Of a stretch of 27,524 nt of DNA, positions 22,215-25,363 are shown in pieces (the stretch's first letter is position 1; every line of letters begins with the position of its first letter). A program made the position numbers and the translations under genes. The notes below the pieces were generated by a model. The model did not search any database and was not told where the DNA came from. It saw nothing but the letters and a program-made list of their open reading frames with translations. Source of the stretch: Klebsiella phage KO-TP1; the sequence record PQ571297.1; one strand, 5' to 3'.

Positions 22215-22363
22215 CTCACGCTCACGACGACATCAGTGTTGGCACACTGTGCCTTCCCTTCATTGGTAACGGCTGGCTAATGCCATGGGGTGAAGTGGTC
22301 AGCAATCCATTAAAGGCGCAGCGGCTCGCTGAGGAATATCGGGAAAGGCAGGAGGCGGCATGA
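22211..22363 (+). CDS. 50-aa small ORF coupled by ATGA on both sides.
   Basis: The start overlaps the upstream stop and the stop overlaps the downstream start, both as ATGA. It is not in the ORF track. Confidence 0.35.
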   Translation: MTHAHDDISVGTLCLPFIGNGWLMPWGEVVSNPLKAQRLAEEYRERQEAA

Positions 22364-23112
22364 TTCATTTTCACGGCGGCCCAATTACGCCAGACACATG
22401 CGCACTGAAGGCATGGAAAGGCAGGCATGCTTTCATCTCCTTCGCTAATCCCGGCCAATTAGCCCTGGCCAGCGAAGTCACCCAGTCATTCGCTCTGGAT
22501 AACGGCGCATTCAGTTTCTGGACGAAAAAGCGCGTTGTTAACTGGAATGACTACTACGCGTTTGTAGGTCGCTGGATGAATCACCCACGCTTTGCTTTTG
22601 CTGTTATCCCTGACGTGATCGGCGGGACCAGTGAAGAGAACGACGCGTTAATCGCCGAGTGGCCGCACGGCAAAGTAGTCGGCGCGCCGGTGTGGCACAT
22701 GAACGAGTCCGATGAACGTTTCTTCCGCCTGTGTCGGGAATTTCCGCGCGTATGCATCGGCAGCATGGGTGAATACGACGCGAAGCGCCCGCGCTCATGT
22801 CGGGCAAAGTTACGCGATCTCATCCGTCACGTTGTGGACATAAACGGTTATCCGATAACAAAGCTTCACGGCCTGCGCATGCTGAACGCCGATATCTTCC
22901 GCCATATCCCGCTGTCGTCAGCCGACAGCACTAATGTGGCGCGCAACATCGGAATCGACAAGGCGTGGGATAAATCAGCCTACGCGCCGGCAAGCAAAGA
23001 AACACGCACTGCGGTGCTGGTCGAGCGCATTGAAGCCTTTAACTCTGCAAGTTCGTTGAATTACGACGCTGAGCGCGATCGGTTCACGCCACAACTTGCT
23101 TTCGAGGTGTAA
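22360..23112 (+). CDS. tRNA-guanine transglycosylase-like protein (DpdA-like 7-deazaguanine DNA transglycosylase candidate).
   Basis: FALDNGAFSFW is similar to the TGT motif TDSGGFQ(V/I)F. LHGLRMLNADIFRHIPLSSADSTNVARN is similar to TGT L(M/F)GVG.P..L...V..G(I/V)DMFDCV.PTR.AR.G. Expected size for a TIM barrel. No adjacent queC/D/E genes. Confidence 0.5.
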   Translation: MIHFHGGPITPDTCALKAWKGRHAFISFANPGQLALASEVTQSFALDNGAFSFWTKKRVVNWNDYYAFVGRWMNHPRFAFAVIPDVIGGTSEENDALIAEWPHGKVVGAPVWHMNESDERFFRLCREFPRVCIGSMGEYDAKRPRSCRAKLRDLIRHVVDINGYPITKLHGLRMLNADIFRHIPLSSADSTNVARNIGIDKAWDKSAYAPASKETRTAVLVERIEAFNSASSLNYDAERDRFTPQLAFEV

Positions 23113-23115
23113 TCC

Positions 23116-23643
23116 ATGACCGGAAAATATGTCAGCGAGCTTGAGTTGGGGAAGTGCGGAGAATATTACGCAATTTTTAAGCTGGCCAAGCAGGGTTTTG
23201 TTTGTTTCCCGTCAGACCAGGGATTGCCATACGACATTGTGGTTGAGGCCAACGGCAGGCTCCTTAAGGGACAGGTTCGCTCGACGCTGAAAATGCGCGA
23301 TTACGGCAAATCAAAAAGTGTTTACCGGTTCGGAACGAGAACGGGGAAAGGTTATGGCCGCGCAGCATCACTTAGTACATGTGACTTCTACGCCTTCGTT
23401 GTCATCGATGAAGAGAAGATAGCCTTCATGTCTACGGATGAACTGGCCAGCACAAAAAACCCAGGAACGCTTATCCAGACGATGGAGTTTAGATCTTCTA
23501 GCGGTATTTACCCGGGGAGGATTTATTCCAACGGCACGCAAAGGATGCTTGATTATTCACGGAATATTGAGAGCTATGAAGATTTCAACCGCGTCGTTTC
23601 TCTAATGGGAGGAAGAAGATGCCGAATCAAAAATACAGCTTAA
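23116..23643 (+). CDS. PD-(D/E)xK-type nuclease-like protein.
   Basis: Alpha-beta core with E (GEYYAIF), D (PYDIVVE) and D...EEK (CDFYAFVVIDEEK), a pattern typical of the restriction-endonuclease-like fold. Its GC content is lower than its neighbours. Confidence 0.4.
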   Translation: MTGKYVSELELGKCGEYYAIFKLAKQGFVCFPSDQGLPYDIVVEANGRLLKGQVRSTLKMRDYGKSKSVYRFGTRTGKGYGRAASLSTCDFYAFVVIDEEKIAFMSTDELASTKNPGTLIQTMEFRSSSGIYPGRIYSNGTQRMLDYSRNIESYEDFNRVVSLMGGRRCRIKNTA

Positions 23644-24281
23644 TAATGGCTGACCCTCCATGGGCTTACGGCAACACGATCAGCAACGGCGCCGCTGCGG
23701 ACCACTACTCGACGATGCGACTCATCGACCTGAAGCGCCTGCCTGTGTGGGAATTGGCGGCCGAAAACGCGGTGCTGGCGATGTGGTACACCGGCACCCA
23801 CAACCAAGAGGCAATCGAGCTGGCCGAGTCCTGGGGCTTCACGGTCCGCACGATGAAGGGTTTCACCTGGGTGAAGCTGAACCAGCTGGCTGAGCTGCGC
23901 ATTAGCAAGGCTCTTGCAGAGGGAGAGGTCGCAGACTTTTACGACTTCCTCGACCTGCTGAACGCCGAGACGCGCATGAACGGCGGAAACCATACCCGCG
24001 CTAATACCGAAGACGTGCTGATCGCCACCCGCGGCGCCGGGCTGGAACGCAAGCACGCCGGCATTAAGCAGGTGGTCTACAGCCCACTCGGCGCGCACAG
24101 CGAGAAACCGTGGGAAGTTCGGCACCGCCTGGAACTGCTCTACGGAGACGTGCCGCGGATTGAGTTATTCAGCCGCAGCGCAGCACCAGGCTGGAGTCAC
24201 TGGGGCAACCAGTGCGCCACCGCTTCCGTTGAGCTGATCCCTGGATGCGCCATCGACGTTGTGAAGACGGAGGCAGCATGA
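23619..24281 (+). CDS. MT-A70-family DNA N6-adenine methyltransferase.
   Basis: The LIMADPPWAY catalytic DPPW motif is at the N-terminus. GGAGG Shine-Dalgarno 6 nt before the ATG. Confidence 0.85.
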   Translation: MPNQKYSLIMADPPWAYGNTISNGAAADHYSTMRLIDLKRLPVWELAAENAVLAMWYTGTHNQEAIELAESWGFTVRTMKGFTWVKLNQLAELRISKALAEGEVADFYDFLDLLNAETRMNGGNHTRANTEDVLIATRGAGLERKHAGIKQVVYSPLGAHSEKPWEVRHRLELLYGDVPRIELFSRSAAPGWSHWGNQCATASVELIPGCAIDVVKTEAA

Positions 24282-25363
24282 GCTCGGCAGCTTACTACAA
24301 CGAGATCGACCCATTCGCGGCGCAGTGGCTGCGTAACCTCATAGCCGCCGGGCATATCGCACCTGGCGAAGTTGACGAACGGAGTATTGAAGATGTCACA
24401 CCTGACGACCTCAGAGGATTTACCCAGTGCCACTTTTTCGCCGGGATTGGCGTCTGGTCCCATTCCCTCCGCCTCGCCGGATGGCCTGACGATCGCCCGG
24501 TCTGGACAGGCTCCTGCCCGTGCCAGCCTTTCAGCGCGGCAGGCAAAGGTGATGGGTTTGCTGACGAGCGGCACCTTTGGCCCCACTTCTTCCATCTCAT
24601 CAGCGAGCGCAGACCTCAGCATGTCTTTGGCGAACAGGTTGCAAGCGGTAACGCAAATACATGGTTCGACCTTGTACAGGCAGACCTGGAAGGAGTGGGA
24701 TACGCCTTCGGGCTTGTGCCGTTTACGTCAGCGGGCATCGGTGCACCGCACATCAGAGAGAGAGCTTACTGGGTGGCCGAGTCCGCTGGCGAGCAATGTC
24801 AAAAACTGCTACCAGGACTGGCTCAAGGTGTTGGCGCGGAAGGAAGCCGGTCGCCAGCCAAATCTACAGGACTTCGCAGTATTGGCAGCCTGGACAACAC
24901 CGACAAGCCGGGACTGGAAAGACACTTCCGGAATGACAGCGCAGCGGGACGGGAAGGAACGACTGGACCAGCTGCCGCGCCAGGCGTTCATGACAGGCTG
25001 GCCAACACCGACAACGAGCAACACTCGATCGCCATCAGTGGATGCGGCCATGAACATGTATCGACAGGACGGGAGCAAGACCCAGCAGCGTCTGCAGGAC
25101 TTCGCGGGGATTACCGGCCCCTTGAGGTTAACGGTTTTTGGAGAGATGCGGACTGGCTCTTATGTCGAGATGGCAAATGGCGTCCAGTTGAACCCGGCAC
25201 ATTCCCGCTGGTTGATGGGGCTGCCGCACGCATGGGACGAGTCGAGCCCGGGGTGGCAAGAGTGGCAAGCAGCAACCGCGTCGGCCGCCTCAAAGGGTAC
25301 GGCAACGCCATAAACGCCCAGGCAGCAGCGGCTTTCATTCGCGCTTATATGGGGGTCGCATGA
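24278..25363 (+). CDS. Dcm-like DNA cytosine-5 methyltransferase, apparently disrupted by two frame changes around its central target-recognition region.
   Basis: Motifs FAGIG (I), PCQ (IV), FGEQV (VI) and RER (VIII), and the C-terminal GNAI (X), are in this frame. The protein-like middle, including an RWLMGLP motif that resembles motif IX, is in the +1 frame (ORF 24372-25313). GGAGG Shine-Dalgarno and an ATGA overlap with the MT-A70 gene. Confidence 0.55.
   Translation: MSSAAYYNEIDPFAAQWLRNLIAAGHIAPGEVDERSIEDVTPDDLRGFTQCHFFAGIGVWSHSLRLAGWPDDRPVWTGSCPCQPFSAAGKGDGFADERHLWPHFFHLISERRPQHVFGEQVASGNANTWFDLVQADLEGVGYAFGLVPFTSAGIGAPHIRERAYWVAESAGEQCQKLLPGLAQGVGAEGSRSPAKSTGLRSIGSLDNTDKPGLERHFRNDSAAGREGTTGPAAAPGVHDRLANTDNEQHSIAISGCGHEHVSTGREQDPAASAGLRGDYRPLEVNGFWRDADWLLCRDGKWRPVEPGTFPLVDGAAARMGRVEPGVARVASSNRVGRLKGYGNAINAQAAAAFIRAYMGVA

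Follow-up and report, generated by a model that had tools for sequence, protein, structure and literature searches.

Four genes in the early-left operon of KO-TP1

The 27,524-nucleotide (nt) stretch of Klebsiella phage KO-TP1 analysed here, hereafter the window, is part of a lambda-like prophage as judged from scans of its open reading frames (ORFs) and domains. We examined four co-oriented plus-strand ORFs that overlap or abut between positions 22360 and 25363, encoding a DpdA-like protein of 250 amino acids (aa), a small nuclease, and two DNA methyltransferases of the MT-A70 and C5 cytosine families (Table 1). A DUF1317-family ORF marks the slot that dpdA occupies, and its stop overlaps the dpdA start as ATGA (22360-22363). 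Only 3 nt (23113-23115) separate dpdA from the nuclease gene; the nuclease and MT-A70 genes share 25 nt (23619-23643), with a good Shine-Dalgarno sequence, GGGAGGAAGAAG, ahead; and the MT-A70 and C5 genes again overlap by ATGA (24278-24281). Read from the sequence, these junctions support translational coupling of the four genes. The C5 methyltransferase most likely starts at 24278 rather than at the mechanical ORF start 11 codons upstream (24245), since the former position provides the ATGA overlap, has GAGG ahead of it and agrees with 361-aa gene calls in identical loci. An earlier note on this DNA had described four consecutive, translationally coupled genes at 22360-25363, with a PD-(D/E)xK nuclease, an MT-A70 and a C5 methyltransferase beside the transglycosylase-like gene. 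All of these ORFs are present, the junctions agree, and domain and profile matches give the three neighbours the same identities.

Table 1. Coordinates of the four genes, the putative cassette and the surrounding features of the window.
Feature	Position	Strand	Remarks
dpdA-like gene	22360..23112	+	250 aa; putative DNA guanine transglycosylase
PD-(D/E)xK endonuclease gene	23116..23643	+	175 aa; I-Ssp6803I / PF11645 family
MT-A70-family methyltransferase gene	23619..24281	+	220 aa; N6-adenine DNA methyltransferase
C5 cytosine DNA methyltransferase gene	24278..25363	+	361 aa (372 aa from 24245)
Putative mobile cassette	23131..23648	+	~518 bp; at MT-A70 codon 5/6
DUF1317-family ORF	22211..22363	+	50 aa; phrog_1998 E 3.3e-27; PF07026 in identical loci
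Capsid, portal, terminase, lysis, Q, Nin and O/P replication genes	356-17943	-	
S24 repressor gene	17950-18744	+	
Early-left (pL) operon, after the repressor		+	gam-like gene, RecT, Gp157, 142-aa regulator, DUF1317
DksA/TraR-type zinc-finger protein gene	25775-25993	+	PF01258 E 9.3e-10
Tyrosine integrase gene	26207-27370	+	Operon end; PF00589 E 1.3e-40

Independent assortment of the four genes

We then compared the gene content of related loci. Among 19 species-representative loci with a full-length dpdA, the nuclease gene was found in none, the C5 gene in none, and an adjacent MT-A70 gene in 3. Phage SfI carries DUF1317 followed by dpdA, with the methyltransferases absent, and in phage Eeyore dpdA lies between a DksA-like gene and an exonuclease gene. 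Klebsiella phage 2 LV-2017 has the MT-A70 and C5 genes and neither dpdA nor the nuclease gene, and HK639 has a regulator, a small ORF at the DUF1317 position and then MT-A70 only. The identical four-gene set recurs in four loci (L016, L019, L021 and L025); a different, 660-aa methylase stands in place of the C5 gene in four others (L017, L018, L020 and L024), and the C5 gene is absent from two more (L023 and L027). Within the window lineage, dpdA and the nuclease gene are co-linear at 95-100% identity. The genes thus assort independently across phages and species, indicating that the four are independently exchangeable modules that lambdoid mosaicism has made adjacent in the window lineage. 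The view in the earlier note that they form one cluster does not hold, since they are not co-inherited: dpdA stands alone in SfI and Eeyore, and MT-A70 stands alone in HK639. More generally, 'modification clusters' in lambdoid early-left operons can be mosaic accidents, and a check of co-occurrence is needed before such a group is read functionally.

By their domain content and their close phage relatives, the MT-A70 and C5 proteins are ordinary phage methyltransferases. The MT-A70 protein matched PF05063 (E 1.3e-24; 87.5 bits against a threshold of 23.9), phrog_359 (E 1.9e-97) and the PADLOC model MTase_II (E 1.7e-52), and has its DPPW motif at residues 12-15. A relationship to M.EcoGII, a non-specific prophage enzyme, was considered and rejected, as that enzyme has 349 aa and a DPPY motif and belongs to a different type. 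The C5 protein matched PF00145 (E 3.9e-13; 50 bits against a threshold of 22), with only its N-terminal half covered by the Pfam model, as well as phrog_363 (E 5.6e-93) and TIGR00675 (E 4.6e-9). Its motifs I, IV, VI, VIII and X are present (FAGIG, PCQPFS, EQV, RERAYW and GNAI), together with a long variable middle region. Both genes are 88-92% identical in DNA to genes of Klebsiella, Escherichia and Salmonella phages, the C5 gene matching at ~91-92% the genes annotated as cytosine methylases in Klebsiella phage 2 LV-2017 and in Salmonella phage epsilon15. Relative to the orphan methyltransferases of HK639 (gp35), Klebsiella phage 2 LV-2017 and epsilon15, which share this 88-92% nucleotide identity and the same operon position, the sole difference is the replacement of the first codons of the window MT-A70 gene.

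A putative cassette in the 5' end of the MT-A70 gene

Three of the 19 dpdA loci, from Huaxiibacter (L028), Citrobacter (L030) and Enterobacter (L031), carry an empty site, with a short spacer between the dpdA stop and the MT-A70 start and with collinear flanks, so that at this fixed position the nuclease gene is present in some alleles and absent from others. The MT-A70 gene starts with ATGACCGGA/GAAAAATAC in L028 and L030. At the L028 junction the dpdA stop TAA is followed by TTCC and then by ATG ACC GGA AAA TAC TCA CTT ATC TAT GCT GAT CCT CCC TGG, giving an MT-A70 N-terminus of MTGKYSLIYADPPW; HK639, which is without dpdA and the nuclease gene, starts alike. In the window, what had been the start and first codons of MT-A70, ATGACCGGAAAATA (23116-23129), has become the opening of the nuclease ORF and supplies its first five codons (MTGKY): the ORF begins ATG ACC GGA AAA TAT, the same codons as in the empty MT-A70 allele, and then diverges. 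About 0.5 kb further on, GGGAGGAAGAAG is followed by ATG CCG AAT CAA AAA TAC AGC TTA ATA ATG, after which the sequence rejoins the empty allele at GCT GAC CCT CC, giving a window MT-A70 N-terminus of MPNQKYSLIMADPPW. The putative cassette therefore comprises the body of the nuclease ORF, a new Shine-Dalgarno sequence, the MT-A70 ATG at 23619 and the recoded codons AGC TTA ATA ATG (23637-23648).

The recoding is sharply bounded. The 12 nt after the K-Y codons are the same in 5 nuclease-bearing alleles, and 9 of the 12 are changed relative to 4 empty alleles (for coordinates, L028:5745-5810 and L013:2874-2920), with the residues S-L-I kept; in the following 60 nt, filled and empty alleles differ at 9-19 positions. 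Between loci with MT-A70 bodies of 83-93% identity, the nuclease gene matches at 98-100%, and four separate comparisons show a fall of identity in the bin that begins at 23651. In a structural model, the nuclease chain is disordered over its last nine residues, which coincide with the new 5' end of MT-A70. This anatomy is what would be expected of a homing endonuclease gene that is free-standing and whose target has been made immune by recoding. Since the nuclease gene is inserted in the 5' end of MT-A70 and is tied to that gene rather than to dpdA, it is more likely a selfish element than a modification-dependent effector.

Family and distribution of the nuclease

The 175-aa protein scored 25.4 bits against PF11645 (PDDEXK_5, the 'ssp6803i' family), for which the cut-off is 26.1, and a profile of the nuclease family matched I-Ssp6803I (PDB 2OST) with an E value of 1.7e-5. 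PF11645 is precomputed in 20 of 32 nuclease homologues, and the I-Ssp6803I-type PD-(D/E)xK fold extends across the whole 175-aa chain. Residues E16, D40, Q53 and D90 are invariant in the family. The Lys of the Q-V-K motif is replaced by Arg (Arg55, codon 23278-23280) in the clade of the window protein, as well as in two unrelated members, and is kept elsewhere; acidic residues together with Q-x-K are what we take to be the catalytic set of the I-Ssp6803I motif.

The nuclease has 32 clusters of homologues, against 6,232 for DpdA. None was found in 50,697 phage records, and a blastn search of 5,426 complete E. coli genomes gave none either; a near-identical dpdA was also absent from complete E. 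coli genomes at the sensitivity of the search. The exact 175-aa protein is indexed in 351 assembly blocks, and the gene seems to be confined to prophages of Enterobacteriaceae other than E. coli. It is a free-standing gene with no intron, its ORF overlapping MT-A70 directly; a search of Rfam returned no family at 22900-23900 (E <= 1) and none at the gathering score in the four-gene region. In every locus seen, across three diverged clades, the nuclease gene lies directly upstream of MT-A70. Two of the diverged clades carry this pair without dpdA nearby, in Klebsiella after a DnaB module and in Serratia after RecT/AlpA (L001-L007); because of these loci and the empty-site alleles, the nuclease can be regarded as independent of dpdA. 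Two Salmonella-like loci (L022 and L026) were withdrawn from the set of pairs without dpdA, as a 3' remnant of dpdA (5733-5997; 94.7% identity over 35% of the gene) is present directly upstream of their nuclease gene. Both are degraded prophages with a large internal deletion and with neighbouring holin and tailspike genes on the other strand, in which the nuclease-MT-A70 pair is kept.

The I-Ssp6803I gene resides in a group I intron that interrupts a cyanobacterial tRNA gene. The window nuclease, in contrast, is free-standing inside the 5' end of a protein gene in enterobacterial prophages, has a C-terminal extension of ~25 residues that overlaps the new MT-A70 start, and, unlike I-Ssp6803I, has Arg for the motif Lys. 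Free-standing homing endonucleases of T-even phages (seg and mob, 'intronless homing') are likewise polymorphic in presence and absence and are inserted at the boundary of a conserved gene. They share with the window nuclease a small nuclease gene and a sharp change of identity next to the insertion, consistent with co-conversion. The T-even enzymes are GIY-YIG or HNH nucleases, whereas the window enzyme is of the PD-(D/E)xK type and its cassette rebuilds the 5' end of the gene it interrupts. The locus offers a clear example of an I-Ssp6803I-family endonuclease gene that exists without an intron in enterobacterial prophages, at one fixed MT-A70 site, and with filled alleles, empty alleles and a recoded target all available, homing is directly testable. 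We regard the free-standing I-Ssp6803I-type cassette as modestly new; the other parts of the stretch are of known kinds.

A DpdA-family protein without a zinc site

The 250-aa protein matched phrog_887 ('queuine tRNA-ribosyltransferase') with an E value of 1.8e-95, a family that also takes in the DpdAs of phages 9g, MED16 and 7-11. Its homologues are numerous, with 6,232 clusters when grouped at 90% identity and 807 when grouped at 50%, and those that are named in their sources are called 'hypothetical'. When a 52-member alignment of the family was compared with the 9g DpdA by hhalign, the two matched with a probability of 98.3% (E 1.8e-14), pairing LDNGAFS with LDSGAFS, KLHGLRML with KVHGFGIT and SADSTN with SCDSSS (window family and 9g, respectively). 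In BLASTP, the DpdA of Pantoea phage MED16 was 37% identical to it (E 9e-45) and the protein of Salmonella phage 7-11 was 35% identical (E 1e-37). The motifs lie at residues 46-53 (LDNGAFSF), 169-175 (LHGLRML) and 187-196 (SADSTNVARN), for which the counterparts in E. coli TGT are TDSGGFQ (D89), LMGVG (243) and DMFDC (D264).

D47, H170, S187, D189 and S190 are invariant across 52 diverse family members, and D85, H113, E116 and G134 are nearly so (D85 at least 90% conserved). D47 corresponds to the general acid/base Asp (TGT D89/D102, DpdA D95) and aligns with the LDSGAFS motif of 9g; D189, on strand 187-190, corresponds to the nucleophile (TGT D264/D280, DpdA D256) and aligns with SCDSS. D85, just after strand 78-82, is a candidate for the base-recognition Asp (TGT D143/D156, DpdA D130). 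The AlphaFold (AF2) model of the protein (pLDDT 92.5, pTM 0.89) has eight alternating strand-helix units, a TIM-barrel core, and every fold match was to a TIM barrel. The conserved residues cluster at the C-terminal ends of successive beta-strands or just beyond them, the usual position of a TIM-barrel active site. Foldseek against the PDB ranked generic TIM barrels first and did not separate TGT from other barrels; the best structural neighbour named was Cap10, with a sequence identity of only 8%. Scans of NCBIfam and Pfam with the 250-aa protein returned no match, a single-sequence PDB search returned no TGT or DpdA chain, and hhalign of the family against one E. coli TGT sequence was uninformative (probability 0.7%). 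The fold evidence therefore supports 'TIM barrel', and the assignment to DpdA comes mainly from sequence profiles and catalytic motifs, which place the protein among the stand-alone ('singleton') phage DpdAs as a trimmed, TGT-derived TIM barrel.

The CDCYTC element of E. coli TGT (302) has no counterpart here: CxCxxC is absent, and the sole Cys residues are at positions 14, 125, 132 and 147. The validated DpdA of 9g is likewise without the CxCxxC zinc cluster, and bacterial DpdA retains a CxCx2Cx22H zinc site (PMC10164549), so the missing site excludes TGT or bacterial DpdA proper and does not exclude a phage DpdA. The TGT-like motifs and the missing zinc cluster had both been pointed out in the earlier note, and they are borne out by the sequence, the phrog_887 match and the 9g profile. 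The combination that it calls the hallmark of phage DpdA enzymes does apply to phage DpdA; zinc loss fails as a hallmark of DpdA in general, as the bacterial enzyme keeps the site. In the profile and structural comparison with the TGT and DpdA families that it had proposed, hhalign linked the protein to 9g, Foldseek did not discriminate and the Pfam TGT model gave no match.

DpdA-only relatives and the expected level of modification

The window dpdA belongs with genes that have already been catalogued. A supplementary table of Hutinet 2019 lists DpdA-only phages that include SfI (YP_009147480), SPN3UB, HK106, SEN1, BTP1 and 7-11, and the singleton DpdAs group by host clade, with gamma-Proteobacteria among them (Hutinet 2019). 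YP_009147480 is the SfI protein that lies at the match of 86% identity to the window DpdA, and in the part of the table that covers SfI, its row gives the DpdA accession alone, with no synthesis genes. SfI also has dpdA in the same early-left slot after DUF1317. The singleton DpdAs of gamma-proteobacterial phages (Hutinet 2019; Simoliunas 2021), among them those of SfI (86% identity to the window protein), SPN3UB (67%), MED16 (37%) and 7-11 (35%), have in common with it the LDNGAFS, HGLR and (S/T)ADS motifs, phrog_887 and the absence of preQ0 genes. Nothing substantive sets the window protein apart from them; its gene happens to adjoin methyltransferase genes.

In DpdA-only phages, 7-amido-7-deazaguanine has been found in DNA (dADG) at ~0.13% of G in MED16 and ~0.02% in 7-11, and the authors noticed no effect of dADG on the restriction enzymes tested with MED16 (PMC8306585, PMC6884629). 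By our arithmetic these trace levels amount to roughly 33 (MED16) and 9 (7-11) sites per genome, and the base is dADG, not preQ0 in DNA (dPreQ0). By analogy, a strong protective mark would not be expected from the window DpdA. The 9g DpdA has been demonstrated to insert preQ0 into DNA (PMC6884629), and when expressed alone in E. coli it gave plasmid dPreQ0 at 0.03-0.3% of G from the host preQ0 pool, making a dependence on host precursors reasonable. No match to folE, queC, queD or queE was found among the window ORFs scanned (27.5 kb, the visible part of the prophage), in agreement with the statement in the earlier note that no such genes lie nearby and that the host would supply any 7-deazaguanine.

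The catalytic motifs of the Queuovirinae enzymes (9g gp03 and CAjan DpdA1) align with those of the window protein, and both kinds are without CxCxxC. The 9g DpdA differs in its length (317 aa against 250 aa), with an extra N-terminal segment and a C-terminal extension, and in lying in a folE-queD-queE-gat-queC cluster and modifying about 25-30% of G, whereas the window DpdA stands alone; a tblastn search with the window DpdA gave no Queuovirinae record among the matches listed. Compared with bacterial DpdA (S. Montevideo, PDB 7UI4) and TGT, the window protein is without the zinc site, the large Ins8 insertion and the DpdB/DpdC partners, is ~160 residues shorter than bacterial DpdA, and goes undetected by Pfam TGT. 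Among the papers searched, nothing specific was found on the function of prophage DpdAs or on a pairing of PF11645 with MT-A70. Temperate phages with DpdA alone are frequent in Enterobacteriaceae, and an inducible prophage like KO-TP1 would be a convenient genetic system for the function of a singleton DpdA.

A mosaic stretch with a probable selfish insertion and competing explanations

We read the locus as a mosaic stretch of the pL operon of a lambda-like prophage from an Enterobacteriaceae host, in which three independently assorting DNA-modification 'moron' genes stand together with one selfish insertion, and put the probability of this reading at about 0.7. During lytic growth, DpdA would most likely swap a few guanines of duplex DNA for host-made preQ0 or 7-amido-7-deazaguanine. 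By homology, Asp189 would attack C1' to give an intermediate in which enzyme and DNA are covalently joined, with Asp47 as general acid/base, and by analogy with MED16 and 7-11 the load may be tens of sites per genome. The MT-A70 and C5 enzymes would add N6-methyladenine (6mA) and 5-methylcytosine (5mC) before packaging, probably in the usual anti-restriction role. The nuclease cassette would have landed at MT-A70 codon 5/6 and taken over the start codon, bringing a replacement ribosome-binding site, start and recoded first codons from which MT-A70 could still be made. Rival phages or prophages with an uninterrupted MT-A70 5' sequence would be cut there by the nuclease, which would spread by repair, the recoding rendering the cassette's own allele immune.

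Several observations weigh against this reading. Arg55 replaces the motif Lys in the window clade, so the nuclease may be inactive; the conserved adjacency of nuclease and methyltransferase fits a restriction-modification pair too, and lambdoid mosaics often have breakpoints at gene boundaries even where no nuclease is present. As for DpdA, the 250-aa protein lacks the zinc site by which TGT and bacterial DpdA are defined, Pfam TGT (PF01702) was unmatched by this protein or any of 52 relatives at E <= 10, a search of the PDB with the 52-member profile returned no TGT or DpdA chain, and D85 lies three positions off the 9g Asp in the hhalign alignment. Orion, a DpdA-only phage, is without modification, and functional divergence of singleton DpdAs has been raised as possible (Hutinet 2019).

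The nuclease and MT-A70 could instead be a small type II-like restriction-modification pair, or an addiction or competition pair, carried by the prophage, in which the nuclease would cut unmethylated host or rival DNA at short sites and MT-A70 methylation would shield phage DNA. In three diverged clades the two genes lie side by side in one orientation and overlap, the PD-(D/E)xK fold is common to type II enzymes (NhoI, PvuII), and several candidate defence proteins list PF11645 domains. This alternative comes closest to the 'modification-blocked effector' that the earlier note had proposed for the nuclease, with 6mA instead of 7-deazaguanine as the mark. The identities of nuclease and methyltransferase are discordant across loci, and we consider such a pair unlikely, if still worth entertaining. 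A co-adapted four-gene cluster, in which three protective marks are combined with a nuclease sensing the presence or absence of the 7-deazaguanine mark, would account for the contiguity and translational coupling of the genes, for the recurrence of the exact arrangement in L016, L019, L021 and L025, and for the co-linearity of dpdA and nuclease within the lineage. It is, however, largely contradicted by the independent assortment of the genes across phages and species: distant nuclease homologues adjoin MT-A70 without dpdA nearby, empty-site alleles have a 99%-identical DpdA without the nuclease, and DpdA-only relatives have trace modification and no measurable protection from restriction. We therefore hold it to be very improbable. 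The nuclease as a modification-dependent or modification-blocked effector, as put forward in the earlier note, is not upheld, being linked to MT-A70, in whose 5' end its cassette lies, and not to DpdA; of the 'three protective marks' proposed there, the three enzymes DpdA, MT-A70 and C5 are indeed present, but the phrase is overstated, given the trace dADG of DpdA-only relatives and the unaffected enzymes in MED16.

Other alternatives concern the 250-aa protein itself. It might be a diverged TGT-fold enzyme that acts off DNA, on protein-linked or free 7-amido-7-deazaguanine (ADG), on tRNA, or in counter-defence. This is quite improbable, as dADG is found in the DNA of phages with homologues, the profile similarity to a DpdA validated on DNA is strong, no CD-NTase or other partner gene lies nearby, and the identity to Cap10 is very low. 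That the protein is an unrelated TIM-barrel enzyme with coincidental TGT-like motifs would agree with the generic barrels placed first by Foldseek, with the unmatched Pfam, NCBIfam and PDB sequence searches and with the empty hhalign comparison to a single E. coli TGT sequence; set against the 9g profile match and the invariant motif residues, we give it hardly any credence. A more speculative thought, to which we assign little weight, is that the singleton DpdAs of temperate enterobacterial phages are handlers of ADG with a ligand preference like that of the CBASS protein Cap10, rather than anti-restriction enzymes. They could place a handful of dADG marks that serve some other end than keeping nucleases off, or they could serve in counter-defence, capturing or removing ADG attached to an effector by type IV CBASS and perhaps by QatABCD. 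If true, this would explain why Cap10 is the best structural neighbour, why trace dADG is found over dPreQ0, why MED16 is unprotected, and why the family is nevertheless strongly conserved (6,232 clusters, invariant catalytic residues).

Other features of the window

On the plus strand, no terminator-like site was found from 19561 to the window end, which is consistent with a single early-left transcript reaching int. A 264-aa ORF (13595-14389, plus strand) lies on the strand opposite to the surrounding nin and replication genes, and the G+C content around it (13001-15000) is 45-48%, against about 55% elsewhere. It matched phrog_4780, a family with no assigned function, and gave weak coiled-coil or SMC-like matches (AAA_13, LmuB, JetC and PDC-S06). 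The ORF has the look of a moron and may be a defence or exclusion gene. The kilobase of lowest G+C in the window (8001-9000, 42%) holds two small plus-strand ORFs, 8173-8454 and 8441-8770, which sit between the minus-strand terminase and lysis genes; one of them matched phrog_2336, likewise with no assigned function, and the pair is probably another moron. In the nin region, a 147-aa protein (12985-13428, minus strand) has a DNA polymerase III theta (HolE/Hot-like) domain (PF06440, E 3.6e-35). Two small RNA families of Rfam scored above the gathering threshold, STnc100 (63.4 bits) and isrJ (63 bits), at 10502-10696 and 10778-10854 on the minus strand, just downstream of the Q antiterminator gene, the expected place of a lambdoid late-promoter leader.

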